From Patescibacteria group bacterium (GTDB taxonomy: Bacteria > Patescibacteriota > Patescibacteriia > UBA2591 > UBA6264): DNA of 64,000 nt. The translations under genes and the position numbers were made by a program. Every line of letters starts with the position of its first letter. The first letter of the stretch is position 1. Location of the stretch: positions 1,371 to 65,370 of the forward strand of contig JAQTOB010000002.1 of assembly GCA_028713575.1 (NCBI GenBank), given 5' to 3'. A model generated the notes under the pieces. The model ran no database searches, was not told the origin of the DNA, and worked only from the letters and a program-made list of their open reading frames with translations. Shown piece after piece: positions 2,179 to 57,465 of this stretch.

Positions 2179-3441
2179 ATGTCTGGAAAATTAGAGATAA
2201 TCATGTTCAATATGTCCGGTTATTCGGAATGGCAAAAGGGGATAGCTAATCGGAATTATCACCTTTTCCGTAAGTTATTGGAAAATGATGCTGTCGGCCG
2301 GATTATTTGCGTTGATTTTTTGCCCTTTACCTTTAAAAGGGCGATTAGAAATTATTGGCAAAATATTTTTAAGGGAGAAAAAGGAGAAGTGATTTTTCGC
2401 GATTTAACCACTCGGGTGATTAGAATCCCTCATTCACAAACTGAAGTTTATGTTTTTTCTACCATTGATTCCATTTTTTCTTCCGCCATGGTTATTAAAA
2501 AAATAAACAAAGTTTTAAGTAAAATATTCCAGTTATCCAATTACCCAACAACCCGATTGCCAAGAGTAATTTGGTCCTGCTTTCCTATGTTTGTTGATTA
2601 TTTTTCCGCCAAAGGCGGATCCGCCTCTGGCGGAGAGAATTTACCTCACGATTTAACAGTTTTTGATGCCGTGGATAATTGGATTGAACATCCGTCTTTT
2701 ATAAAACAAAAAGAAAAATTAAATAAAAATTATCAAATAATCGCGGGAAAAAGCGATTTAATTTTTACGGTTTCGGAAAATCTATTGGGATTTTTTAAAA
2801 ATTTTGGACGAGAGAAAGATGTTTATTGGATTGCTAATGGCGTAGACGTTGTTCACTTTATGGAGAAATCAACAACGAAGCCAGAAGATTTAAAGAATAT
2901 TCCCCGGCCAATTATCGGTTATGTGGGGATTATTCAGCAAAGATTAGACATAGATTTGTTAGAATATTTGGCGGAGAAAAATCCAGAAAAATCATTTGTT
3001 TTAATCGGACCGCTTTGGCCGGTTTATTTTCAAAAGATAAGAAAGCCGGCAATAGAAATTCAAAGGCTAAAAAAATACAAAAATATTTATCTTTTGGGTC
3101 AAAAAAATTATTTGCAAACGCCGGATTACATCAAAAATTTTGATTTAGCTATTAGTCCGCATCGTTTGAATAATTTTGTTAAATATACCAATTCACTTAA
3201 AGTTTTAGAATATTTAGCTTGCGGTCAGCCCGTGGTTAGCACTCCGCCCTCAGGAGTAGAGAGGTTTTCTCATTTGGTTTATATCGCCCAAGATTATCAG
3301 GATTTTAATAAAAAAATGGAAATGGCTTTAAGAGAAAATAATGAAGAATTGAAAAATCAAAGAATCAGTCAAATGAAAAATCAGGATTGGAGTTTTAAAA
3401 TAGAAGAAATGATTAAATTGATTAAGGAAAAATTATTATGA
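2179..3441 (+). CDS. glycosyltransferase, GT-B fold (family 1/4-like)
   Basis: 420-aa ORF whose C-terminal half resembles the GT1 C-domain (…GYVGIIQQRLDIDLL…FVLIGP…YLLGQKNY…). It lies in the glycan cluster and overlaps the next gene by 4 nt. Confidence 0.55.
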   Translation: MSGKLEIIMFNMSGYSEWQKGIANRNYHLFRKLLENDAVGRIICVDFLPFTFKRAIRNYWQNIFKGEKGEVIFRDLTTRVIRIPHSQTEVYVFSTIDSIFSSAMVIKKINKVLSKIFQLSNYPTTRLPRVIWSCFPMFVDYFSAKGGSASGGENLPHDLTVFDAVDNWIEHPSFIKQKEKLNKNYQIIAGKSDLIFTVSENLLGFFKNFGREKDVYWIANGVDVVHFMEKSTTKPEDLKNIPRPIIGYVGIIQQRLDIDLLEYLAEKNPEKSFVLIGPLWPVYFQKIRKPAIEIQRLKKYKNIYLLGQKNYLQTPDYIKNFDLAISPHRLNNFVKYTNSLKVLEYLACGQPVVSTPPSGVERFSHLVYIAQDYQDFNKKMEMALRENNEELKNQRISQMKNQDWSFKIEEMIKLIKEKLL

Positions 3442-4328
3442 CTCTTTCCATAATTATTGTTAGCTGGAACGTTAAGGCCCTTTTAGAAAGGTGTCTGGAT
3501 TCCGTTTTCCGTAATTTAAATGATTTAGAAGCGGAAATTTTAGTTGTGGATAATAATTCTCAGGATGGGAGCCAAGAATATTTAAAGAGTAGACAAAGTT
3601 ATAATTTGAAAATTATTTTAAATAACAGAAATTTTGGATTTAGCCAAGCCAATAATCAAGCCCTAAAACAGGCAAAAGGGGAGTATATTTTATTTCTTAA
3701 TCCAGATACGGAAATTATAGATGATGTTTGTCGGCAGGCAATCCAACTTTTACAACAAAACAAAGACTGGGGATTAATTGGTTGTCAGTTAATTGGTCCG
3801 GACAATAGAATTCAGTCCTCAGTAAGAACTTTCCCCAGCGTCGGGAATCAACTGATTCTTCTTTTAAAGCTCCAGTATTTGCTGCCCGGCCTTAGGACAT
3901 TGAAAAGATATTTTCGTCAGGATTTCAATTATGACCAGATTGCTGAGGTTGACCAGGTGGCAGGAGCATTTATGATGACAAAAAAAGAAGTTTTGGAACA
4001 GATAGGGAGTTTTGATGAGCGCTTCCATTTGTGGTTTGAAGACGTTGATTTTTGCTATCGGTTAAAACAAGTTGGTTATAAAATTATTTACTATCCTCGG
4101 AGAAAAGTAATTCATTATGGCGGACAGAGTTTTAATCAACTTTTATCCAAAGAGAGACAAAAAATTTATAACCACAGTTTACGGCTTTATTTTAAAAAAC
4201 ATTTTCCTCCTTTTTATTATTGGCCCATTATTTTAGTTCAGCCATTAAGTTTATTTTTGGCTCGGTTAAGCGAAGTTTTTTCTGTTACAAAAAAAGAACA
4301 AATAAAAAAAAGATTAAAAGTCAACTAG
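3438..4328 (+). CDS. glycosyltransferase family 2
   Basis: N-terminal MTLSIIIVSWN…VVDNNSQDGS matches the GT2 DxD/NxS pattern, with FEDVDFCYR in the C-terminal region. Confidence 0.8.
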   Translation: MTLSIIIVSWNVKALLERCLDSVFRNLNDLEAEILVVDNNSQDGSQEYLKSRQSYNLKIILNNRNFGFSQANNQALKQAKGEYILFLNPDTEIIDDVCRQAIQLLQQNKDWGLIGCQLIGPDNRIQSSVRTFPSVGNQLILLLKLQYLLPGLRTLKRYFRQDFNYDQIAEVDQVAGAFMMTKKEVLEQIGSFDERFHLWFEDVDFCYRLKQVGYKIIYYPRRKVIHYGGQSFNQLLSKERQKIYNHSLRLYFKKHFPPFYYWPIILVQPLSLFLARLSEVFSVTKKEQIKKRLKVN

Positions 4329-7746: not shown

Positions 7747-7820
7747 TCGGGGGTCGTCTAATGGCAGGACATCAGGTTTTGGTCCTGAGAATTGGGGTTC
7801 GAGTCCCTGCCCCCGAGCCA
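7747..7820 (+). tRNA. tRNA-Gln (anticodon TTG), CCA encoded
   Basis: Hand-folded cloverleaf: acceptor tcggggg/cccccga, D-stem gtct/ggac, anticodon stem tcagg/cctga with loop ttTTGgt, T-loop ttcgagt, discriminator G then CCA. The T-stem needs two G·U pairs. Confidence 0.7.
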
Positions 7821-7865: not shown

Positions 7866-8330
7866 AAAAAATACACAGGGGAAAAAAATACACAGGTTCA
7901 ACCTGTGTATTTCTAACCTATGCATTTCTGATTTTAAAAGGTATGATATAATTAAAATATGGGTTGGATATAAAAAAATACACAGGTTGAACCTGTGTAT
8001 TTTTAATTTATGCATCTCTAATTTTTGACTTTTTGACCAGGGGACTGTCCCCAAAAGACGTCCTTCTACAATCCCCATTTTTGACCAGGGGACTGTCCCC
8101 AAAAGACGTCCTTCTACAATCCCCATTAGTGCTGGATTTTGGAACGATTTTTAAAAAATAGTCGAATATCGACTACTCTATATGAAATGAAAAAAGGCGT
8201 CAGGAACCTTTTAATGAGTAATCTTTTATAATATAATTAAAATATGGGTTGGATATAAAAAAATACACAGGTTGAACCTGTGTATTTTTAATTTTTTAAA
8301 AATAGTCGAATATCGACTACTCTATATTTA
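7866..8330. repeat. mosaic of short repeats between tRNA-Gln(TTG) and the next gene
   Basis: Four components read directly. A 27-bp palindrome aaatacacaggtt[g/c]aacctgtgtattt occurs three times (7886-7912, 7976-8002, 8261-8287). A perfect 64-bp direct repeat lies at 7946-8009 and 8231-8294. A 48-bp unit is tandemly repeated twice at 8030-8125. A motif tttaaaaa(a)tagtcgaatatcgactactctata containing a 17-bp palindrome occurs twice (8147-8183, 8293-8329). Confidence 0.85.
8030..8125. repeat. 2 x 48-bp tandem repeat tttttgaccaggggactgtccccaaaagacgtccttctacaatcccca
   Basis: Two identical adjacent units. Each unit is homologous to the 5' ~45 bp of the ~210-bp elements at 54385 and 56325. Confidence 0.85.
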
Positions 8331-8424
8331 AGAAAGAAGTTGTTTATTATTTTGTTTGCCGCCTTTTTTATTTTTTCTGAGGTGGTATAATAAAACTGGA
8401 TTAATAATTATTAATATTAATATT

Positions 8425-48742: not shown

Positions 48743-51292
48743 ATGGGGTTAGATATTTATTCAAATATTTTGTATTGGCGCGAGCGAGGATTTTTTAATC
48801 TTAAATTTTGGCTCCCTTTTTTTGTTTTAATATTATTTTTAATTTTATTCTTCTTTTTAAAAAAATATTTAAGAAGGTCGGCTCAATATAAGTTTTCTTT
48901 TCAGCGCGCCATTCTTTTAGTCACGGTGCCTAAGATAAAAATGGATAAAGAAGAAAAAGAGAAAACCCCCAAAGAAATGTTGCAACCAATAGAAAATTTT
49001 TTTGATAACATTGGCGGATTAAAAGCACAAAAAGGATTTAAAACTTGGTTTTTAGGCCGTTCAGACCATTTTTCTTTTGAAATACTTTCAGACAAGCAGG
49101 GTATTATTTCTTTTTATGTGGTCGTGCCGCGAAATTTGCAAACGTTTTTTGAACAACAAGTTCACGCGCAATATCCAGCGGCGCAAATAGAAGAAGTAGA
49201 TGACTATAATGTTTTTTTACCCCACGGAGAAGTTGTTTGCGCCAGTCTTACCTTAAGAACTTATTCCATGTTCCCAATTAAAACCTATAATAAGACAGAA
49301 ACTGATCCTTTAAATGCCATTACTAATTCTTTGAGCCGAATTGCGGAGGAAGATTCAGCCGCGATTCAAATTATGGTTCGTTCGGCTCAGTCAGGTTGGC
49401 GTCAACCCGGCATCAAAGTTGCCCTAGAAATGCAACAAGGCAAAAAATTATCAGAGGCGCTAAAAAATATGAGCGGAGGTTTATCAAAATTTTTTAGTTT
49501 TTTAACCGATTTTATTTTTCCCAAATCGCAAAAAAAACAAGATAAAGAATTAGATAAGCCGCATCAACTTTCACCCATGGAACAAGAAGTCGTTAAGACC
49601 ATTGAAGAAAAGGCGAGCAAGGCCGGAATGGATGTAAATATTAGAATTGTGGTTTCTGCCCGCGATAAAGGATTGGCTGAAAGCTATTTAGATAACATTG
49701 TTAATGCTTTTGCCCAATATACGGGTTATGAATACGGCAATGGATTTAAAAAAGCAAAAATGAATAAAAACGAGATTATTAGGAATTTTATCTACCGGAA
49801 TTTTAATGAGAATATAAGTTTTGTTTTAAACACAGAAGAAATGGCCAGTATTTATCATTTTCCATTGCCGACAACAGAAACGCCAAATATTCGTTGGTTA
49901 ATGGCGAAAAAAGCGCCGGCGCCGATTAACATTCCGCACGAAGGCTTGTTTTTAGGTTACAATATCTATCGCGGTCAAAAGACAGCCATTAAAATTAAAA
50001 GAGAGGACCGTCGTCGACATATGTATGTTATTGGTATGACCGGTACAGGCAAATCTTGGTTTGCCGAAGGCTTGGCTATGCAAGATATTGCCAATGGCGA
50101 GGGTATCTGCTTTATTGACCCGCATGGAGACGCTATTGGTCATATTTTAGAAAGAATTCCCAAGAATAGAGCCGAAGACGTAATTCTTTTTGACCCGGGC
50201 GACTTAACTCGGCCATTAGGATTGAATATGTTAGAATATGATTTTTCAGAACAAAAAACTTTTGTCATTAATGAAATCATGAATATTTTTGACAAGCTTT
50301 ACGATTTGCGCGCAACCGGTGGTCCGATTTTTGAACAATATTTTAAAAACGCTTGTCATTTGGTTATGGATGATATAGCTTCAGGTTCTACTTTATTGGA
50401 AATTCCTAAAGTTTTAGCTGATGATGAATTTAGAAGATATAAGCTTTCCAAATGCAAAACCTTAATGGTTAAAGAATTTTGGGAAAAACAAGCTTTAAAG
50501 GCGGGGGGTGAAGCTTCTTTACAAAATATGGTTCCTTATATTACTAGTAAATTGACACCGTTTTTGACTAATGAATTTATGCAACCTATTATTTCCCAGC
50601 AAAAAAGCAGTTTGAATTTTAGAGAGGCCATGGATAATAAAAAAATAATTTTAGCTAAATTATCTAAAGGTAAAATTGGTGATACCAATGCCTATTTGTT
50701 GGGAATGATTATTGTTGGCAAGATTTTAATGTCTGCTTTGAGTCGTGGAGATATGCCGGAAGAAAAAAGAAATGATTTTTATTTATACATTGATGAATTT
50801 CAAAACTTTTTAACCGAAAGTATGCAGGTCATTTTATCCGAAGCGAGAAAATACCGTTTATGTTTGAATATTATTCACCAGTACATCGGCCAGTTGGTTA
50901 AAAATAGTGATACTAAATTTAAGGACTCCATTTTTGGCAACGTGGGGACAAAAATAGCCTTTCGTATCGGCGTGGACGATGCTGAAGATTTGACTAAAGA
51001 ATTTGCCCCGGTTTTTAATGAATACGACTTTTTAAATATGCCTCAATATAGCGCTTTTGTAAAACTTTTGATTGACAATGCCAATCCGCCGGGTTTTAAT
51101 ATTTCTACGGTTCCTTTTGACCAAATCCCCGGAGTGCCACCGGCTAATCCGGAAATCGCAAAAATTATTAAGGAATTATCTCAATTAAAATACGGCAAAA
51201 CTTTACCCATGATTGAACGGGAAATAAGTCAAAGAAGTCAAATTATTAATCAATTAAAGCAAACAACAGATGGTAATTTATCGCAAATATAG
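48743..51292 (+). CDS. membrane-anchored P-loop ATPase, VirD4/TraG/TrwB coupling-protein-like (or HerA/FtsK-like)
   Basis: N-terminal TM helix, Walker A GMTGTGKS and Walker B FYLYIDEFQNF. The C-terminal region …LCLNIIHQYIGQL… resembles the TraD/TraG C-terminal domain. Confidence 0.5.
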   Translation: MGLDIYSNILYWRERGFFNLKFWLPFFVLILFLILFFFLKKYLRRSAQYKFSFQRAILLVTVPKIKMDKEEKEKTPKEMLQPIENFFDNIGGLKAQKGFKTWFLGRSDHFSFEILSDKQGIISFYVVVPRNLQTFFEQQVHAQYPAAQIEEVDDYNVFLPHGEVVCASLTLRTYSMFPIKTYNKTETDPLNAITNSLSRIAEEDSAAIQIMVRSAQSGWRQPGIKVALEMQQGKKLSEALKNMSGGLSKFFSFLTDFIFPKSQKKQDKELDKPHQLSPMEQEVVKTIEEKASKAGMDVNIRIVVSARDKGLAESYLDNIVNAFAQYTGYEYGNGFKKAKMNKNEIIRNFIYRNFNENISFVLNTEEMASIYHFPLPTTETPNIRWLMAKKAPAPINIPHEGLFLGYNIYRGQKTAIKIKREDRRRHMYVIGMTGTGKSWFAEGLAMQDIANGEGICFIDPHGDAIGHILERIPKNRAEDVILFDPGDLTRPLGLNMLEYDFSEQKTFVINEIMNIFDKLYDLRATGGPIFEQYFKNACHLVMDDIASGSTLLEIPKVLADDEFRRYKLSKCKTLMVKEFWEKQALKAGGEASLQNMVPYITSKLTPFLTNEFMQPIISQQKSSLNFREAMDNKKIILAKLSKGKIGDTNAYLLGMIIVGKILMSALSRGDMPEEKRNDFYLYIDEFQNFLTESMQVILSEARKYRLCLNIIHQYIGQLVKNSDTKFKDSIFGNVGTKIAFRIGVDDAEDLTKEFAPVFNEYDFLNMPQYSAFVKLLIDNANPPGFNISTVPFDQIPGVPPANPEIAKIIKELSQLKYGKTLPMIEREISQRSQIINQLKQTTDGNLSQI

Positions 51293-52510: not shown

Positions 52511-53692
52511 ATGAAAACAAACGTTGACGAAAAACAAATTAAAGGATTATTAACTCGAGGAGTTAATGAAGTAATTGATTTTAGTCATTTAAGAAAACGT
52601 TTGTTATCGGGAGAAAAATTAAGAATCAAATTAGGCATTGACCCTACCAGCCCTCATATTCATTTAGGAAGGGCGGTTTCTCTTCTTAAATTAAGAGATT
52701 TTCAAAATCTTGGGCACAAGGTGGTATTTATTATTGGCGATTTTACTGGTGTTGTTGGCGACACTTCTGACAAAGAAAGCGAACGCCCCATGCTTTTTAA
52801 AAAACAGGTGGAAGAGAATATGAAAACGTATATCAGGCAAGCTGGGAAAATTTTAGACATGGAAAAAACCGAAATTTGTCATAATTCTACGTGGCTAAAA
52901 AAACTTGGCTATGAAGAAATAGGAAAACAGGCGAATCAGTTTTCTTTAGCTGAGTTCATCAATCGGGAAAACATTAAAAAGCGACTAAACTTGGGGACCA
53001 GGGTTTCTTTAAGAGAACTTCTTTATCCTTTAATGCAGGGATATGACAGCGTTGAAGTGAAAGCTGACGTGGAGCTCGGGGGAACAGACCAGAGATTTAA
53101 TTTGCTGGCAGGTCGGACCTTGCAGGAATATTATGGTCAAAAACCTCAGGACGTAATGATGACTAATCTTATTTTAGGTACGGACGGCAGAAAAATGAGT
53201 TCCAGTTGGGGTAATACTATCAATATTGTGGACAAACCAAGTGAAATGTTCGGTAAAATAATGAGTTTAACCGATGATTTAATCATAACCTATTTTGAAC
53301 ACTGCACCCGGGTTGATATGGATAAGGTGAAAAAATATAGCGAAGAATTGAAGGCCGGTAAAAATCCCAAAGATGTCAAAATGGATTTAGCTTATGAGAT
53401 TACCAAGATATACTGGGGAGAAAAAAAATCAGAAGAAGCCAAAGATTATTTCATCACTGTTTTTCAAAAAAAGGGAATTCCGCAAGAAATATCGAAAATG
53501 AAATTGGCGAACAAAAATATTCTTGAGATTTTGGTTTTAAGTAAATTGGCAAAAAGTAAAAGCGATGCCAGAAGGCTAATAGGTCAAAAAGGCGTAACAG
53601 TTGATGGAAAAACAATAGAATCAACAGAAGAAACAGTTAAAAAGGGTAGCATTATCCAAAAAGGAAAAAGATATTTTGTAAAAATCATTTAG
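52511..53692 (+). CDS. tyrS: tyrosine--tRNA ligase
   Basis: HIGH-like PHIHLG, a KMSSS variant of KMSKS, GGTDQRFN, and a C-terminal S4-like RNA-binding domain. Confidence 0.8.
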   Translation: MKTNVDEKQIKGLLTRGVNEVIDFSHLRKRLLSGEKLRIKLGIDPTSPHIHLGRAVSLLKLRDFQNLGHKVVFIIGDFTGVVGDTSDKESERPMLFKKQVEENMKTYIRQAGKILDMEKTEICHNSTWLKKLGYEEIGKQANQFSLAEFINRENIKKRLNLGTRVSLRELLYPLMQGYDSVEVKADVELGGTDQRFNLLAGRTLQEYYGQKPQDVMMTNLILGTDGRKMSSSWGNTINIVDKPSEMFGKIMSLTDDLIITYFEHCTRVDMDKVKKYSEELKAGKNPKDVKMDLAYEITKIYWGEKKSEEAKDYFITVFQKKGIPQEISKMKLANKNILEILVLSKLAKSKSDARRLIGQKGVTVDGKTIESTEETVKKGSIIQKGKRYFVKII

Positions 53693-53725
53693 ATGCCGGG
53701 TCGTCTAACTTGCCCCGCCAATTTT

Positions 53726-54061
53726 ATGTCATATCTTTATATTTTAAAAAATAGATTAGGCAGGCATTATATCGGGATTACTAAATTAGAACCAAGAGAA
53801 AGATTAAAACGACATAATCAAGGAGACGTTTATTCAACAAAATCCGGGAGGTCCTGGAAAATAATTTGTCTAGAAAAATTTGAAACTCTTAAAGAAGCAA
53901 GAGAAATGGAAAAAATGATAAAGAGATGGAAAGGCGGAAATGCATTTAAAAAGTTTCTCTGCAAAACTGCCGGGTCGTCTAATGGCAGGACAACGGATTC
54001 TGGCTCCGTTTATCTTGGTTCGAATCCAAGCCCGGCAGTTTTGCAGAAAAACAAGATATAA
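53726..54061 (+). CDS. GIY-YIG nuclease family protein (YhbQ/UPF0213-like). The ORF reads through tRNA-Gln(CTG) before reaching a stop
   Basis: MSYLYILKNRLGRHYIGIT…RLKRHN…EAREMEKMIKRWKG covers the GIY/YIG/Arg/Glu motifs. The last ~30 codons are encoded by the tRNA gene itself. The ORF track begins at 53693. Confidence 0.55.
   Translation: MSYLYILKNRLGRHYIGITKLEPRERLKRHNQGDVYSTKSGRSWKIICLEKFETLKEAREMEKMIKRWKGGNAFKKFLCKTAGSSNGRTTDSGSVYLGSNPSPAVLQKNKI
53968..54038 (+). tRNA. tRNA-Gln (anticodon CTG), no encoded CCA
   Basis: Acceptor tgccggg/cccggca. A 19-nt block gtcgtctaatggcaggaca is identical to tRNA-Gln(TTG). Anticodon stem acgga/tccgt with loop ttCTGgc, T-arm cttgg-ttcgaat-ccaag, discriminator G. 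Confidence 0.8.
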
Positions 54062-54259
54062 ATTTGGCGGGGTGAACAGGACAACGGATTCTGGCTTCGT
54101 TTATCTTGGTTCGACTTGTCCCGTTAAAGGCGGGAATCCAATCTTGGCAGCCATCCTTCGCCAAGGCTACGAAATGGCTAAAACTATGTTGTTGTATTTG
54201 TTGCTTTGAATTTTAGGTAGTCCGGAACTTTAGTGAAGGATACCAAGCCCGGCAGTTTT
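54062..54259 (+). pseudogene. disrupted second tRNA-Gln copy and duplicated tRNA 3' end (att-like direct repeats)
   Basis: 54077-54114 matches tRNA positions ~20-57 (37/38) and is preceded by a D-arm-deleted remnant tggcggggtgaa. 54243-54259 repeats the tRNA 3' end ccaagcccggcagtttt exactly (17/17). A ~128-bp unrelated insert separates the two pieces, and a scrambled gggaatccaatcttggcag lies at 54132-54150. Confidence 0.6.
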
Positions 54260-54384
54260 TTATTGCTTCCGTTCCTCAAAACCTTCAGCCCGCTATATAA
54301 ATAGCGACGAAGACACTGATGCTGAGGGAAGCGCCGACGAACGAGAGTGAAGAGGGACTGAGCTTAACAGAGCGAATGTAATTA

Positions 54385-54597
54385 ACTTAAGAAAGGGGTC
54401 TGTCCCCAAAAAATGCCTTTCTAAAATCCTTATCAGTGTTGGATTTTAAGACGATTTTTAAAAAATAGTCGAATATCGACTACTTTAGAAAAATTAAATT
54501 CACCAAAATGGGACCGCCTTTGGAAAATGGCATACAGGGGCCGGACATAGATTTTTTAAAAGTCAGACCCCTTAAAGGGAAGATTGAGGAGGTTTAA
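54385..54597. repeat. ~210-bp conserved structured repeat element, copy A
   Basis: It is ~96% identical to 56325-56528. The 10-bp terminal inverted repeat (possible P1 stem) is aaggggtctg (54393-54402) / cagacccctt (54564-54573). Internal hairpin aaatcc…ggattt. A 17-bp palindrome tagtcgaatatcgacta lies at 54466-54482. It ends with an RBS-like gaggagg just before the downstream ORF. Confidence 0.85.
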
Positions 54598-54774
54598 CAT
54601 CTGATGTGATGGTGAGTACCTACGAGGTGAGACCTCGTAGGGGTGATGAAAAATTCCCGTTTTTGTTTTTTGGCCCAATTTCGCCTCTATCTTTTACAGG
54701 GTCGCCACTTTTTATTGAGGTATATAAAAATACGAAATTATTTAAATAATTTGCGGATTAAAAAATTTAATTTT

Positions 54775-55107
54775 ATGAAAACAATCAAATGGTTTGCTCG
54801 AATAATCGCATTATGTATTCTGGTGTTCGCTTTGCCGTTTTATTTTGGCTACGGTAATCCATTGCCGTTTGCTAATCCGAATTATTCTTTGTGGGAGAAT
54901 GTTGCACTATCTATGATGCCACTGGTTTTTATCGGTTTAGCCTTGGGCTGGAAGTATCCAAAAATCGCAGGCTGGCTTATTATTAGTGCAATTGCAATTG
55001 GTTTTATCGTTGGACTTTTAACAGAAGCAAACCTCAGTATCAATCTGGCAGTTCCTATCATTCCAGGAATTTTGTATTTAATAGATGGGTATAAAAAAAA
55101 TGAATAA
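54775..55107 (+). CDS. hypothetical small membrane protein (110 aa)
   Basis: ATG 54775 gives MKTIKWFARIIALCILVFALPFYFG… with 3-4 TM helices. The upstream in-frame extension from 54643 overlaps the repeat element and looks non-coding. Confidence 0.4.
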   Translation: MKTIKWFARIIALCILVFALPFYFGYGNPLPFANPNYSLWENVALSMMPLVFIGLALGWKYPKIAGWLIISAIAIGFIVGLLTEANLSINLAVPIIPGILYLIDGYKKNE

Positions 55108-55276
55108 ATATATTAAGATAATACTTTCTATTCTGGCGGTATTATTCGGGTTATTTTTAATTGTATTTGGCGGATACGATGACAGTCCTGGAGCACAAGG
55201 ACTTGGACTTATATTAGTTATTACTACAGTCATTATCGTAATTAGAAGCAGAAAGAAAAACAACAATCCACTATGA
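55085..55276 (+). CDS. hypothetical small membrane protein (63 aa)
   Basis: Two TM helices and a basic C-terminal tail. Confidence 0.3.
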   Translation: MGIKKMNKYIKIILSILAVLFGLFLIVFGGYDDSPGAQGLGLILVITTVIIVIRSRKKNNNPL

Positions 55277-56289
55277 TTTTTGAGCATTCATCAAAAAACA
55301 AAAAGGTATTATTGTTTATTTTTATAACTATTTTAATGATAGGTGTTTTTTTGTCTTTATATTCGTCAGTCATCTTTCAAGAAGGCAATCCTTGGCCACA
55401 AATCAAAGGAATGGTTCAATTAAAATTTGGCGATAGTGATATTGTGAAGTTGTCGGGTTCAGATAATAAATTTATGACCGAAAGTAAAAACGGGACCATG
55501 ATACATAATTTCATGAAAACCAAAGGATACGAATTTACCGAGCAAATGGGTTCAGGTTACTTCTTCAAATCTTCTACAGGACAAAGCGCCATTGCCACTC
55601 ATAAATATTACACTCGTTATTATTCGCTTTGGACTATTACCGAAAATAACAATTTCCAAACTGACAACGATCTGTGGGCGATGACTACCGATAACAACGG
55701 AGCAACCTTTCAATATCCAAAAGAGTTATTGGCCAAATATATTAGTATTGTAGAGTGGCCGCCGACAGTTAAGGTGGAATTTGGCAGTTTCTCTTGCGTT
55801 GAGACGCCACAAGAAAAAAGCAGTATGCTTGAAATAACCAGTCAGAGATTGGTTGATGATAGAATTTACTGCGTTAATGTTAAAAATGAGGGAGCGGCGG
55901 GAAGTGTTTATTCTTCCTATGTTTATACGACTCCCAGGAGAGGAAAACTGGTTTCGGTTAGCTTTGTCTTGCGCTATACGAATTGTGCCAATTATGACGA
56001 GGAGCAGAGTCAGGCCTGTACAAGCGAGCGCGAGGCTTTTGATTTTGATGCGACAGTGGATCGCATAGTCCAGACTGTTAAATGGGATTCAGCTTTAAGT
56101 GAAGACACCTTATTTAATCAAATAGCTAAATGTTTGGTATCAAGTCGGTCGGAAGATCAGGAAAAATGCGATGAATTTTTGAAACAGATTAGCGATTTTG
56201 ATTCCTGCGTAATGGCTGGTTTCTCCATAATGAAATCAAACCCTCTCCAGTGCGCCACGCCAGACGGCCGAATCTTTATTCAAAAGTGA
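55273..56289 (+). CDS. hypothetical secreted or membrane-anchored Cys-rich protein (338 aa)
   Basis: N-terminal signal/anchor. The C-terminal 30 aa CVMAGFSIMKSNPLQCATPDGRIFIQK are homologous to CVNAGYPIMESYPRQCITSDGQIYVEE in the protein at 8425-9045. Confidence 0.45.
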   Translation: MIFEHSSKNKKVLLFIFITILMIGVFLSLYSSVIFQEGNPWPQIKGMVQLKFGDSDIVKLSGSDNKFMTESKNGTMIHNFMKTKGYEFTEQMGSGYFFKSSTGQSAIATHKYYTRYYSLWTITENNNFQTDNDLWAMTTDNNGATFQYPKELLAKYISIVEWPPTVKVEFGSFSCVETPQEKSSMLEITSQRLVDDRIYCVNVKNEGAAGSVYSSYVYTTPRRGKLVSVSFVLRYTNCANYDEEQSQACTSEREAFDFDATVDRIVQTVKWDSALSEDTLFNQIAKCLVSSRSEDQEKCDEFLKQISDFDSCVMAGFSIMKSNPLQCATPDGRIFIQK

Positions 56290-56324
56290 AATAAGTAATT
56301 TTTCGGTATAATAGACTCAAGAAA

Positions 56325-56528
56325 GGGGTCTGTCCCCAAAAAATGCCCTTCTAGAATCCTTATCAGTGTTGGATTTTAAGACGATTTTTAAAAAATAGTC
56401 GAATATTGACTACTTTAGAAAAATTAAATTCACCAAAATGGGACCGCCTTTGGAAAATGGCATACAGGGGTCGGACATAGATTTTTTAAAAGTCAGACCC
56501 CTTAAAGGGAAAATTGGGGAGGTTTGAC
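56325..56528. repeat. ~210-bp conserved structured repeat element, copy B
   Basis: Same element as 54385-54597. A TATAAT lies at 56307-56312 just upstream. The internal palindrome carries one mismatch (tagtcgaatattgacta, 56396-56412). It ends in an RBS-like ggggagg before ORF 56546/56588. Confidence 0.85.
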
Positions 56529-56587
56529 CTCAGTAATATAGGGACGTGACAGGGTTCGGCCCAGCAAATTATTGTAAAATAATATAC

Positions 56588-57034
56588 ATGAACAAAATAA
56601 CGCTCCATAATCAATGGGTTGTCAAAGCTCCCATAAATGATGTATTCAGAATAATGACCGACTTTGAAAAATTTCCGAAGAATTTTCCAAAGGTTGCTGA
56701 ATCAATACAGATTAATAAACGGGAAGGAAATTATTTGGGAATGGACGCAACCGTAAAATCATTCGGCAAAAGGTTTCAAGTAAAGATGAAAACTCAAATC
56801 CTCCCAGGGAAGGGCTTTATCTCAGATAATGACAGTTATCAGTTTGGGACTTCCGGACATGAAGAGCTGCTGCTTTCCGAACACGTTGAAGGAACTTTAA
56901 TTGACTATACCTATCAGGTCACCATTCATAAAAAATGGCTGAGTATAATCGCTGTACCTCTGCTGCGCTGGTATTCAATGAAATACTGGGAAAAGGCGGT
57001 TATTGATCAGCTTAAAAAGACCCTTGAGAAATAA
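56588..57034 (+). CDS. SRPBCC-superfamily (polyketide cyclase/START-like) protein
   Basis: MNKITLHNQWVVKAPINDVFRIMTDFEKFPK… is typical of the Bet v1/SRPBCC fold. Start chosen at ATG 56588, as the ORF track's 56546 start lies inside the repeat. Confidence 0.55.
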   Translation: MNKITLHNQWVVKAPINDVFRIMTDFEKFPKNFPKVAESIQINKREGNYLGMDATVKSFGKRFQVKMKTQILPGKGFISDNDSYQFGTSGHEELLLSEHVEGTLIDYTYQVTIHKKWLSIIAVPLLRWYSMKYWEKAVIDQLKKTLEK

Positions 57035-57077
57035 TTGAAAGTAGGAGTATGCAGGGGTTCAATTCCTACATTTTTTC

Positions 57078-57106
57078 TTGACAAATTTTTATTTTTATCG
57101 TATAAT
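57078..57106 (+). promoter_or_regulatory. consensus sigma70-type promoter
   Basis: TTGACA (57078-57083), 17-nt spacer, TATAAT (57101-57106). Confidence 0.5.
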
Positions 57107-57195
57107 ATAATTGTTAGATTAAAAGATTCCTAAAAGGGGAGTTTTTTAATTCAAGGTCGATCTTTAACAAGTTAAAGCAAAAAAGAGGCACGCCT

Positions 57196-57465
57196 ATGGC
57201 TTTATTTTTTATTGGCATTTTGGAGATGATTATTGTCACCACCTGGACTAAAGTCGTAACCCGGACGAAGATTATCGCAAGCGGAATAGTTACCTTAATC
57301 AACATTTTGATTTGGTATTATGTTTTAGAGACAATTGTTAACGATATTAACAATTGGCGTTTAGTTCTCTTGTATGCTTTTGGTTGTGCTCTGGGTACGA
57401 TGTTGACGACTTTTTATTTCGCCAACAGAGAAAAAACAGGGCAAGCGGAAAAGAAGCTAGAATAA
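57196..57465 (+). CDS. hypothetical small membrane protein (89 aa)
   Basis: Three TM helices, with a terminator downstream. Confidence 0.35.
   Translation: MALFFIGILEMIIVTTWTKVVTRTKIIASGIVTLINILIWYYVLETIVNDINNWRLVLLYAFGCALGTMLTTFYFANREKTGQAEKKLE

Follow-up and report, generated by a model that had tools for sequence, protein, structure and literature searches.

A GIY-YIG nuclease gene and an intact tRNA-Gln nested in the D-loop of a broken tRNA-Gln gene in Patescibacteria

In a 64,000-nt stretch of DNA from a Patescibacteria group bacterium (GenBank assembly GCA_028713575.1, contig JAQTOB010000002.1, positions 1,371 to 65,370 of the forward strand; the whole stretch is called the window here), one tRNA-Gln gene lies inside the remains of another. 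The locus is a nest: a cassette interrupts the D-loop of an older, outer tRNA-Gln gene, and a 21-nt hairpin interrupts its T-loop. Read 5' to 3', it consists of outer nucleotides (nt) 1-15, the 368-bp cassette, outer nt 19-56, the 21-nt hairpin, a first copy of the tRNA 3' end (copy A), an 88-nt spacer, and a second such copy (copy B). The cassette, which stands in place of the outer D-loop TGG, is built from CTTGCCCCGCC, an open reading frame (ORF) for a GIY-YIG nuclease, an intact tRNA-Gln, and GGCGGGGTGAA. We favor, with moderate confidence, the interpretation that this is a selfish element, made of a GIY-YIG gene and a palindrome, that lodges inside tRNA genes and provides a tRNA as replacement; its cleavage activity and its mobility are what we infer. 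An earlier reading of the same DNA, made from the letters alone (the sequence-only reading), had explained the tRNA fragments as attachment-site (att) scars of an integrase beside a decayed genomic island, and we return to its claims where the evidence bears on them.

Results and Discussion

The cassette and its two genes

The inner tRNA-Gln(CUG) at 53968-54038 (+) was found intact by ARAGORN, scores 59 bits against the Rfam tRNA model, and folds into a clean cloverleaf on an extended helix. Judging from its sequence, we take it to be a functional gene and the cargo of the cassette. The left end of the cassette reads CTTG + CCCCGCCAA + TTTT (53709-53725, +; left inverted repeat, IR-L), and the right end reads AATT + TTGGCGGGG + TGAA (54060-54076, +; right inverted repeat, IR-R). 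The repeat CTTGCCCCGCC at 53709-53719 is the partner of GGCGGGGTGAA on the right, which the sequence-only reading had mistaken for a D-arm-deleted remnant of the tRNA. Together, the ORF and the tRNA are bracketed by inverted repeat I1 (53713-53738 and 54047-54072), which spans 26 nt at 81% complementarity and on the left reaches 53738, overlapping the start codon.

The ORF (53726-54061, +) matches the GIY-YIG family (Pfam PF01541, E 6e-14), with the catalytic domain at approximately amino acids (aa) 1-78 (53726-53959). Its frame stays open across the whole intact tRNA and stops at 54059-54061; the 78-aa GIY-YIG domain is the only one detected, and the other 33 aa are translated tRNA. Across 27 sequences, conservation is complete or at least 90% at Y5, Y15, G17, R26, H30, E62, and N72, and with its catalytic residues conserved in this way the nuclease looks active. 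The closest solved structures are the UPF0213 protein 1YWL and SLX1 7WME. No known transposase class (HUH Y1, DDE) was found in the cassette, where GIY-YIG is the sole domain.

Of the 67 hits found with the protein at E ≤ 1e-3, about 60 are GIY-YIG proteins, and most share 50-71% identity with it. The C-terminal ~33 residues of the homologues (AGSSNGRT..G..YLGSNPSPAAL) are translated tRNA, many of these tails end in FGGVK, which is translated IR-R, and several N-terminal extensions are translated from a 5' fragment and IR-L. At all of 19 genome loci (19/19), the frame runs from the GIY-YIG domain into the tRNA without a stop, which accounts for the many database "proteins" with translated-tRNA tails. 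At our locus, an ATG at 53693 adjoins the stop codon of the tyrosyl-tRNA synthetase gene (TyrRS; TAGATG) and is in frame with the GIY-YIG ORF through the 5' fragment and IR-L; as a result, gene callers give a 122-aa protein.

The broken outer gene

The outer gene begins directly 3' of the TyrRS stop codon with nt 1-15, TGCCGGGTCGTCTAA (53694-53708, +), identical at 15/15 positions to 53968-53982 of the inner tRNA. Beyond the cassette it resumes at nt 19-56, from the 3' strand of the D-stem to the T-loop (54077-54114, +). The sequence-only reading had noted this 38-nt block at 37/38 identity, and it was right; the match is precisely to tRNA nt 19-56 (37/38 against 53986-54023; BLAST E 1.4e-14 within the window), and its sole mismatch, a C-to-T change at 54097, leaves a G-U pair in place of G-C. 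The block is followed by the 21-nt palindromic mini-element CTTGTCCCGTTAAAGGCGGGA, of the form CTTG-TCCCGTT-AAA-GGCGGGA (54115-54135, +), which is an exact insertion into the T-loop (TTCGA^ATCC).

Copy A, ATCCAATCTTGGCAG (54136-54150, +), continues in register after the hairpin as nt 57-71, with 11/15 matches (82% in the repeat search), and its acceptor strand could still pair with 53694-53700 through two G-U pairs. The 128-bp insert of unrelated DNA proposed at this point in the sequence-only reading thus does not hold for its start, which is the hairpin and then copy A. An 88-nt spacer (54151-54238, no strand assigned) comes next, and its end, ..TTTAGTGAAG, resembles by eye a decayed right element end, ..GGGGTGAAG. 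Copy B, GATACCAAGCCCGGCAG + TTTTT (54239-54260, +), is exact over 17 nt including the TTTT trailer. These 17 nt, CCAAGCCCGGCAGTTTT at 54244-54260, equal 54027-54043 (BLAST E ~5e-3 within the window), as the earlier reading had also recorded; what it overlooked were the copy of the 5' end, the GIY-YIG ORF, and the third, diverged 3' end at 54136-54150. Copy B is the outer gene's true 3' end or else a relic of one more layer, and additional downstream 3' ends of this kind occur at two other loci (L006 and L012; L numbers denote the loci compared). The 88-nt spacer, the stretch 54256-54400, and a 223-nt repeat further downstream had no counterpart among the other loci compared. A permissive Rfam scan of 53.6-57.3 kb (E up to 1) gave nothing except the intact tRNA.

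An extended helix around the inner tRNA

Repeat search and folding identified a leader strand at 53953-53967 (+), inside the 3' end of the ORF, and a trailer strand at 54039-54052 (+) that together lengthen the inner acceptor stem. They form part of inverted repeat I2 (53953-53974 and 54031-54052; 22 nt, 95% complementary), so that about 14 nt late in the ORF pair with the tRNA trailer and the acceptor stem grows to about 22 bp. Despite differing sequences, leader and trailer of the same locus pair in 20/20 cases, with a mean of -16.5 kcal/mol compared with -6.8 kcal/mol for cross-locus combinations. The 280 pairs, tallied in a fixed register, comprise 239 Watson-Crick, 16 G-U, 7 A-C, and 18 other.

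The covariation across 20/20 loci argues that the extended helix is under selection, and the excess of G-U over A-C hints at a role at the RNA level. The helix probably acts there; it may free the tRNA from the nuclease mRNA and thereby limit nuclease expression, because in no locus does the ORF have a stop before the tRNA and tRNA excision would truncate the message.

Recurrence and variation in Patescibacteria

The linkage of nuclease and tRNA is not peculiar to this genome. In 19/19 Patescibacteria genome loci found by protein, the ORF runs into a tRNA-Gln (anticodon CUG or UUG), and most of these loci, along with further metagenome loci, are bracketed upstream by an outer 5' fragment with IR-L and downstream by IR-R with the remainder of an outer tRNA-Gln. 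The left junction consensus is tcgtctaa^CTTGCCCCGCCAAATTT(ATG) and the right is AAATTTGGCGGGGTGAA^(g)taggac. Genome and metagenome loci together provide about 22 full-length cassettes (the genuine ones among the 29 rows of our junction set), most of them 362-376 nt long and with the identical junction type. TG(G), i.e. G18G19, is missing at the D-loop junction in all cassettes.

The state of the outer gene varies among loci. At L010 it is otherwise uninterrupted and identical to the inner gene at 70/71 positions; at L013 the outer exons match at 71/71 with one extra hairpin; and at L004 they match at 71/71 by spliced alignment with three extra hairpins, the anticodon loop departing by eye from that of the inner gene. 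The spliced alignment of outer against inner gene over-fits when the outer gene is a different allele; low-scoring rows (L001, L003, L008, L014, and L017-L019) were set aside in favor of reading the loci concerned by eye. Outer and inner acceptor stems differ at about half of the loci, so that the cassette there sits in a different tRNA-Gln allele.

Closer to home, a second assembly of this organism (GCA_028711035.1, L029) has the same arrangement, with two differences in 591 nt (53680-54270) and identical tRNA relics. Both differences (53796 and 53907) are nonsynonymous in the GIY-YIG ORF (R24K and M61R); at position 61, adjacent to the catalytic E62, the family has R as its consensus residue. 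The 5' fragment, IR-L, and the ORF are borne out by four independent short-read assemblies, all of which break inside the inner tRNA, where the 38-nt repeat starts.

A family of hairpin mini-elements

The hairpin in the T-loop is a member of a wider family. It differs from the family by two C-to-T changes with pairing kept as G-U, it is the sole hairpin of its motif in the window, and the arms of such mini-elements ("minis") equal the cassette ends CTTGCCCCGCC and GGCGGGGTGAA. Hairpins of the form YCCCGC(C)-loop-(G)GCGGGR are nearly confined to tRNA remnants, as judged within 3 kb or less around cassettes and over the whole window. A metagenome scan with the pattern CTTGYCCCGCC-N3-6-GGCGGGRTGAA yielded at least 120 stretches with minis, many of them outside tRNA genes. 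Among the matches listed, the minis occur in three contexts: (i) tRNA-Gln remnants adjoining GIY-YIG genes, (ii) D-loops of dead copies of other tRNAs beside an intact twin, and (iii) non-tRNA intergenic sites, where the flanks are often complementary and form the loop of another hairpin. Flanks complementary over at least 5 bp were seen at 20% of the listed junctions not classed as tRNA D-loop, some of which lie in tRNA-Gln anticodon loops, compared with 2.2% of controls.

In the second context, the D-loop TG of the dead twin is replaced by a CTTG..TGAA hairpin in tRNA-Tyr (L046), tRNA-Met (L049), tRNA-Thr (L081), tRNA-Ile (L051, L089, and L110), and tRNA-Val (L054 and L111); by eye only, tRNA-Gly (L040 and L109) and tRNA-Ser (L103) remnants look alike. 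A GIY-YIG gene or its remnant lies between the dead and intact copies at L046, L049, L078, and L081. At L081 it is a decayed remnant that separates two tRNA-Thr copies, and at both L046 and L081 several upstream flank bases are duplicated along with the tRNA.

We compared 22 events with the intact twin, which revealed a target rule. Minis ending in TGAA replace TG (11 events), TTG (2), TGG (1), T (1), or CG (1), and minis without TGAA are exact insertions (6 of the 22 events). The replacements fall at D-loop position 15-16 (Gln, Tyr, Met, Ile, Val, and Thr), at the anticodon TG of tRNA-Gln(UUG), and at a T-stem TGG. The stems themselves change in a compensatory manner within hairpins (e.g. CACCGC/GCGGTG and TCACGCC/GGCGTGA), and at L012 one hairpin lies inside the loop of another. 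A solo D-loop hairpin at L008 retains the CCAAT/ATTGG extension of the cassette ends, a trait that would mark it as an internal-deletion derivative of the cassette.

Two other ways of viewing the hairpins were considered and rejected. A "unit" model, in which they are tandem acceptor-stem junctions, fails because compensatory changes occur within each hairpin and not between neighboring units. A dimeric binding site in double-stranded DNA is at odds with a spacer that varies from 3 to 9 nt and with the compensatory changes in the stems.

At five metagenome loci (L052, L114, L100, L043, and L061), a 25-28-nt palindrome lies in the loops of unrelated hairpins, on contigs without a GIY-YIG gene. 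At L052 the host hairpin is a terminator-like stem followed by a T run, with the palindrome between CACCTCGCT and CGCGAGGTGTTTTTTTT, and L114 is a terminator case too.

Related arrays in Bacteroidota

More distant homologues (42-47% identity) in Chitinophagaceae/Ferruginibacter sit in arrays of tRNA-Pro(GGG), a terminator, the GIY-YIG ORF, and a tRNA-Pro copy (L021 at 2884-3640 and L023 at 2525-3310; also L020, L022, and L024-L028). In the copy, the D arm is exactly swapped for CCCCGCC-N4-GGCGGGG, and some copies also have TCCCGCC..GGCGGGA in place of the T arm. The stop codon of the Bacteroidota ORF is a TAG within the tRNA 5' end (GGGATGTAG). These arrays imply that the association of this kind of small GIY-YIG protein with such a hairpin in the D-loop region of a redundant tRNA predates either phylum-specific arrangement.

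A putative mechanism and its weak points

We propose that a Slx1/UPF0213-type GIY-YIG nuclease has the palindrome as its cognate element, the cassette being the autonomous form and the 20-28-nt hairpins non-autonomous or internally deleted derivatives. The nuclease would cut the DNA of tRNA genes where (T)TG(G) is exposed in loop-coding positions, with D-loop G18G19 as the commonest site and the anticodon TG, the T-stem GG, and the T-loop as others. The break would then be healed with element DNA that replaces about 2 nt, a length that fits the 2-nt 3' overhangs made by GIY-YIG homing enzymes. Since such a hit would kill the tRNA, an event would persist only if it brought along, or left behind, an intact copy of that tRNA, which would explain the cargo tRNA-Gln in the cassette and the intact twin beside each disrupted copy. 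Repeated hits, together with recombination between tRNA repeats, would leave layered fragments like those in the window.

If this account is correct, essential single-copy tRNA genes in the streamlined genomes of the candidate phyla radiation (CPR) can host a selfish nuclease, with lethality avoided by a replacement tRNA. The stand-alone UPF0213/Slx1-like GIY-YIG proteins, which are common and functionally obscure, would gain a defined partner in the GC-rich hairpin and in tRNA D-loops, and their activity would be directly testable with oligonucleotides. It would also explain both the assembly breaks at such loci and the annotated 110-120-aa "GIY-YIG proteins" with translated-tRNA tails, and it would warn that tRNA fragments beside a tRNA gene are not always integrase att sites.

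Several observations weigh against the selfish-element interpretation. The 78-aa protein has no recognizable DNA-binding module and no NCBIfam hit; characterized homing endonucleases do have such a module. GIY-YIG enzymes are hydrolases for which we know of no strand-transfer chemistry, so insertion would need host repair. The inner tRNA, as its sequence reads, retains the presumed target and would lack immunity. A search for an empty site through TyrRS revealed no such allele: the cassette is present in 5/5 assemblies with identical TyrRS, and relatives at 71-76% TyrRS identity (P0083, P0084, and P0092) show no synteny and so offer no comparison. In an all-against-all comparison of 52 cassettes, near-identical ones occurred only in identical flanks, so that no recent transposition was found, and a GIY-YIG alignment scan of viral contigs matched no relatives. 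The metagenome scan demanded both CTTG and TGAA, and the constancy of these flanks outside tRNA contexts is therefore partly built in. Finally, the uniform length, conserved junctions, and covarying helix would fit a vertically inherited, possibly domesticated module equally well.

A bolder form of the proposal is that these elements are a new class of mobile DNA, in which a 20-28-nt palindrome (CTTG-YCCCGCC-loop-GGCGGGR-TGAA) is mobilized by a minimal Slx1/UPF0213-type GIY-YIG nuclease and aimed by structure at hairpin loops, where it replaces TG, and in which the autonomous form sits in a tRNA D-loop with a spare tRNA. The loops aimed at would be the D, anticodon, and T loops of tRNAs, terminator loops, and the loops of earlier copies. 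We offer this only tentatively and think it rather less likely to be true than false. If it is true, it would be the first GIY-YIG-driven cut-and-replace element, common to Patescibacteria and Bacteroidota.

Alternative explanations

The most serious alternative is that the cassette is a long-resident module retained by the host, inherited vertically as RAYT is with REPs and not now mobile. Its role might be RNase III-type release of the tRNA, stabilization of mRNA by GC-rich hairpins, or that of a tRNA-like decoy. Such residency would suit a cassette whose length is mostly 362-376 nt and whose junctions are near-invariant, whose ORF is conserved, and whose helix covaries in 20/20 loci with GU (16) exceeding AC (7). 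The CUUG/UGAA flanks would pair in RNA as U-A, U.G, and G.U, and identical cassettes were found in identical contexts only, with neither an empty site nor a viral copy. In Erythrobacter, a GIY-YIG domain resembling that of Slx1 is fused to a TrmH methylase acting on Gm18 in the D-loop (PMC1564403), a fusion that counts in the same direction. It is harder to reconcile with a resident module that the outer copies are broken at differing positions and by differing numbers of inserts, some with several relic layers, or that the outer acceptor stem departs from the inner one at about half of the loci. The hairpin also disrupts other tRNA species (Tyr, Met, Thr, Ile, and Val) and unrelated hairpin loops, and the anticodon is often the part replaced, so that no constant tRNA-like function is preserved. 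On balance, we judge a resident module to be improbable, though worth keeping in view.

The sequence-only reading, with attL/attR scars in tRNA-Gln and a decayed island at 54.3-57.1 kb, fares much worse, and we consider it very unlikely. Its premise of mobile-type DNA inserted into a tRNA gene stands, as do the copies of the tRNA 3' end downstream of the intact gene; the pieces are nested, however, and are not attL and attR. Integrase crossover sites in tRNA genes lie in the anticodon or T-arm region, in the 3' half, and an upstream 5' fragment with a D-loop split is unlike them. No integrase remains, as that reading had said: a Pfam scan of the ORFs in 42.5-63.7 kb (nearly all of those of at least 100 aa; about 10 kb on each side), in which DnaX and an 849-aa ATPase were judged by precomputed Pfam hits, gave no integrase or recombinase match, and the precomputed Pfam hits of L029 include no integrase either.

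The proposed island is also in the wrong place. All tRNA-derived repeats lie in 53694-54260, within 220 nt of the intact tRNA, which leaves 54.3-57.1 kb outside them, beyond the last repeat. That segment may be accessory DNA, with GC slightly raised at 54.0-57.0 kb (0.37-0.42 compared with 0.30-0.35), copies of the 223-nt repeat, and poorly characterized genes (for a DUF7670 membrane protein, an unassigned 338-aa protein, and an SRPBCC protein). In about 22 genomes, the same nest with a GIY-YIG gene occurs without an island attached. The hairpin at its far end (57040-57068), likened to a tRNA T-arm, has no tRNA-like Rfam match (E up to 1, 53600-57300); with GTAGGA-17 nt-TCCTAC followed by ATTTTTT, it reads as a likely terminator of the SRPBCC gene. 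The consensus promoter placed just after it corresponds to a perfect TTGACA-17-TATAAT at 57078-57106, which reads as the promoter of the DUF5698 gene. The segment is unneeded for explaining the tRNA fragments.

It is likewise very doubtful that the outer tRNA-Gln is a functional multi-intron gene from whose RNA the hairpins and the ORF-bearing cassette are spliced. Many minis are exact insertions, inserts favor loops, and the outer exons can be identical to the inner gene at 71/71 positions (L013, and L004 by spliced alignment); cyanobacterial group I introns, moreover, use anticodon-loop position 34^35. However, TGAA-type minis delete the anticodon TG, and since the D-loop junction lacks TG(G), removal of the insert cannot restore G18G19. 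A canonical tRNA would therefore not be recovered, an intact gene for the same tRNA always lies alongside, and some inserts lie within the T stem. Rfam gave no group I or II intron match in 53.6-57.3 kb (E up to 1), and the hairpin flanks, being loop sequence, are unable to form the outer helix of a bulge-helix-bulge. The organism is bacterial (DnaX, bacterial TyrRS), and we know of no splicing endonuclease in bacteria.

Plain tandem duplication of the tRNA with random decay, the GIY-YIG gene being an unrelated neighbor, is the least credible account: tandem and partial tRNA duplicates do arise, and upstream flank is duplicated too at L046 and L081, but the order of the pieces is nested and not tandem, the junctions are conserved across genomes, the inserts belong to a defined family of palindromes that follows a target rule, and the ORF is linked to the tRNA in 19/19 loci.

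Other features of the window

The 223-nt direct repeat frames the downstream segment with two copies at 95% identity (54379-54601 and 56309-56531), each just upstream of a + strand gene (DUF7670 at 54775 and SRPBCC at 56588). The other tRNA-Gln(UUG) has partial copies downstream of it, at 8039-8180 and 8291-8324, and these are upstream of an ORF at 8356. The repeat folds better than shuffled sequence (z = -3.3) and could be an element like a miniature inverted-repeat transposable element (MITE) or a shared 5' leader. The region at ~7880-8295, 3' of tRNA-Gln(UUG) at 7747-7820, contains three copies of the palindrome AAAAAATACACAGGTTGAACCTGTGTATTTTT interleaved with "tataattaaaatatgggttggatataaaaaa" segments and is a second repeat-rich zone by a tRNA-Gln gene, this one without a GIY-YIG gene. 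Two genes upstream of the tRNA locus, the 849-aa VirD4/TraG-like ATPase (DUF8128, DUF87, and TraG-D_C; 48743-51292) is the sole conjugation-type marker nearby, with no other transfer genes around it.

Comparison with known systems

The phage T4 enzyme SegB, encoded in a cluster of tRNA genes, is a free-standing GIY-YIG homing endonuclease that recognizes a motif conserved in tRNA loops, cuts with 2-nt 3' overhangs, and spreads with tRNA genes (PMC2330249). As in the cassette, a GIY-YIG gene is embedded among tRNA genes; the neighboring tRNAs that SegB spreads with compensate for overwritten ones, and its 2-nt 3' staggered cut fits the 2-nt replacement seen here. SegB is, however, a larger protein encoded between genes in a phage, whereas here we have a 78-aa Slx1/UPF0213-type domain in cellular genomes. 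The Seg family proteins, including SegB, have a DNA-binding region. In addition, our cassette lies inside the D-loop of the target copy, has palindromic ends with mini derivatives, and has an ORF that reads through the cargo tRNA, and its homing is putative.

The REP/REPIN palindromes with their RAYT (TnpA-REP) gene are similar in another respect, as they combine dispersed short GC-rich intergenic palindromes with a single nuclease-type gene flanked by inverted palindromes and seem to be inherited vertically. As is typical of REP and MITE families, the dispersed minis here share their ends with a longer, enzyme-encoding copy. The enzyme in our case is a GIY-YIG protein and not an HUH Y1 transposase, and copies are few, with one in the 64-kb window. 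The sites tend strongly to be loops of tRNA genes with an intact twin, and the element replaces TG, whereas the RAYT type inserts by a fixed tetranucleotide.

Integrase insertion in tRNA genes likewise leaves tRNA fragments beside an intact tRNA and restores a working tRNA through the element. Our locus has no integrase, its split falls in the D-loop, and a 5' fragment has been moved upstream. The insert measures only 368 bp, and the tRNA that is restored is a whole cargo gene and not a hybrid.

Among palindromic systems, IS1397 and ISKpn1 insert into the loops of palindromic units by means of IS3-family transposases, and the Rickettsia palindromic elements are orphan palindromes in RNA and protein genes with no known enzyme. 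They share with our elements an insertion that is directed to hairpin loops or tolerated in structured genes, as well as nested palindromes, but they have no link with a GIY-YIG gene or with tRNA D-loops.

The final parallel comes from the same bacterial group. CPR rRNA genes are described as containing GIY-YIG-encoding inserts that are neither group I nor group II introns (PMC11270868). There too, a GIY-YIG ORF lies inside a structural RNA gene. The host genes are for rRNA; that account mentions no tRNA, and the passages considered describe neither hairpin ends nor a cargo gene. In the literature covered, which is incomplete and so no proof of novelty, we found no account of a GIY-YIG gene and a tRNA nested in a tRNA D-loop, or of the palindrome family. 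The nearest described items are SegB and the GIY-YIG inserts of CPR rRNA genes.

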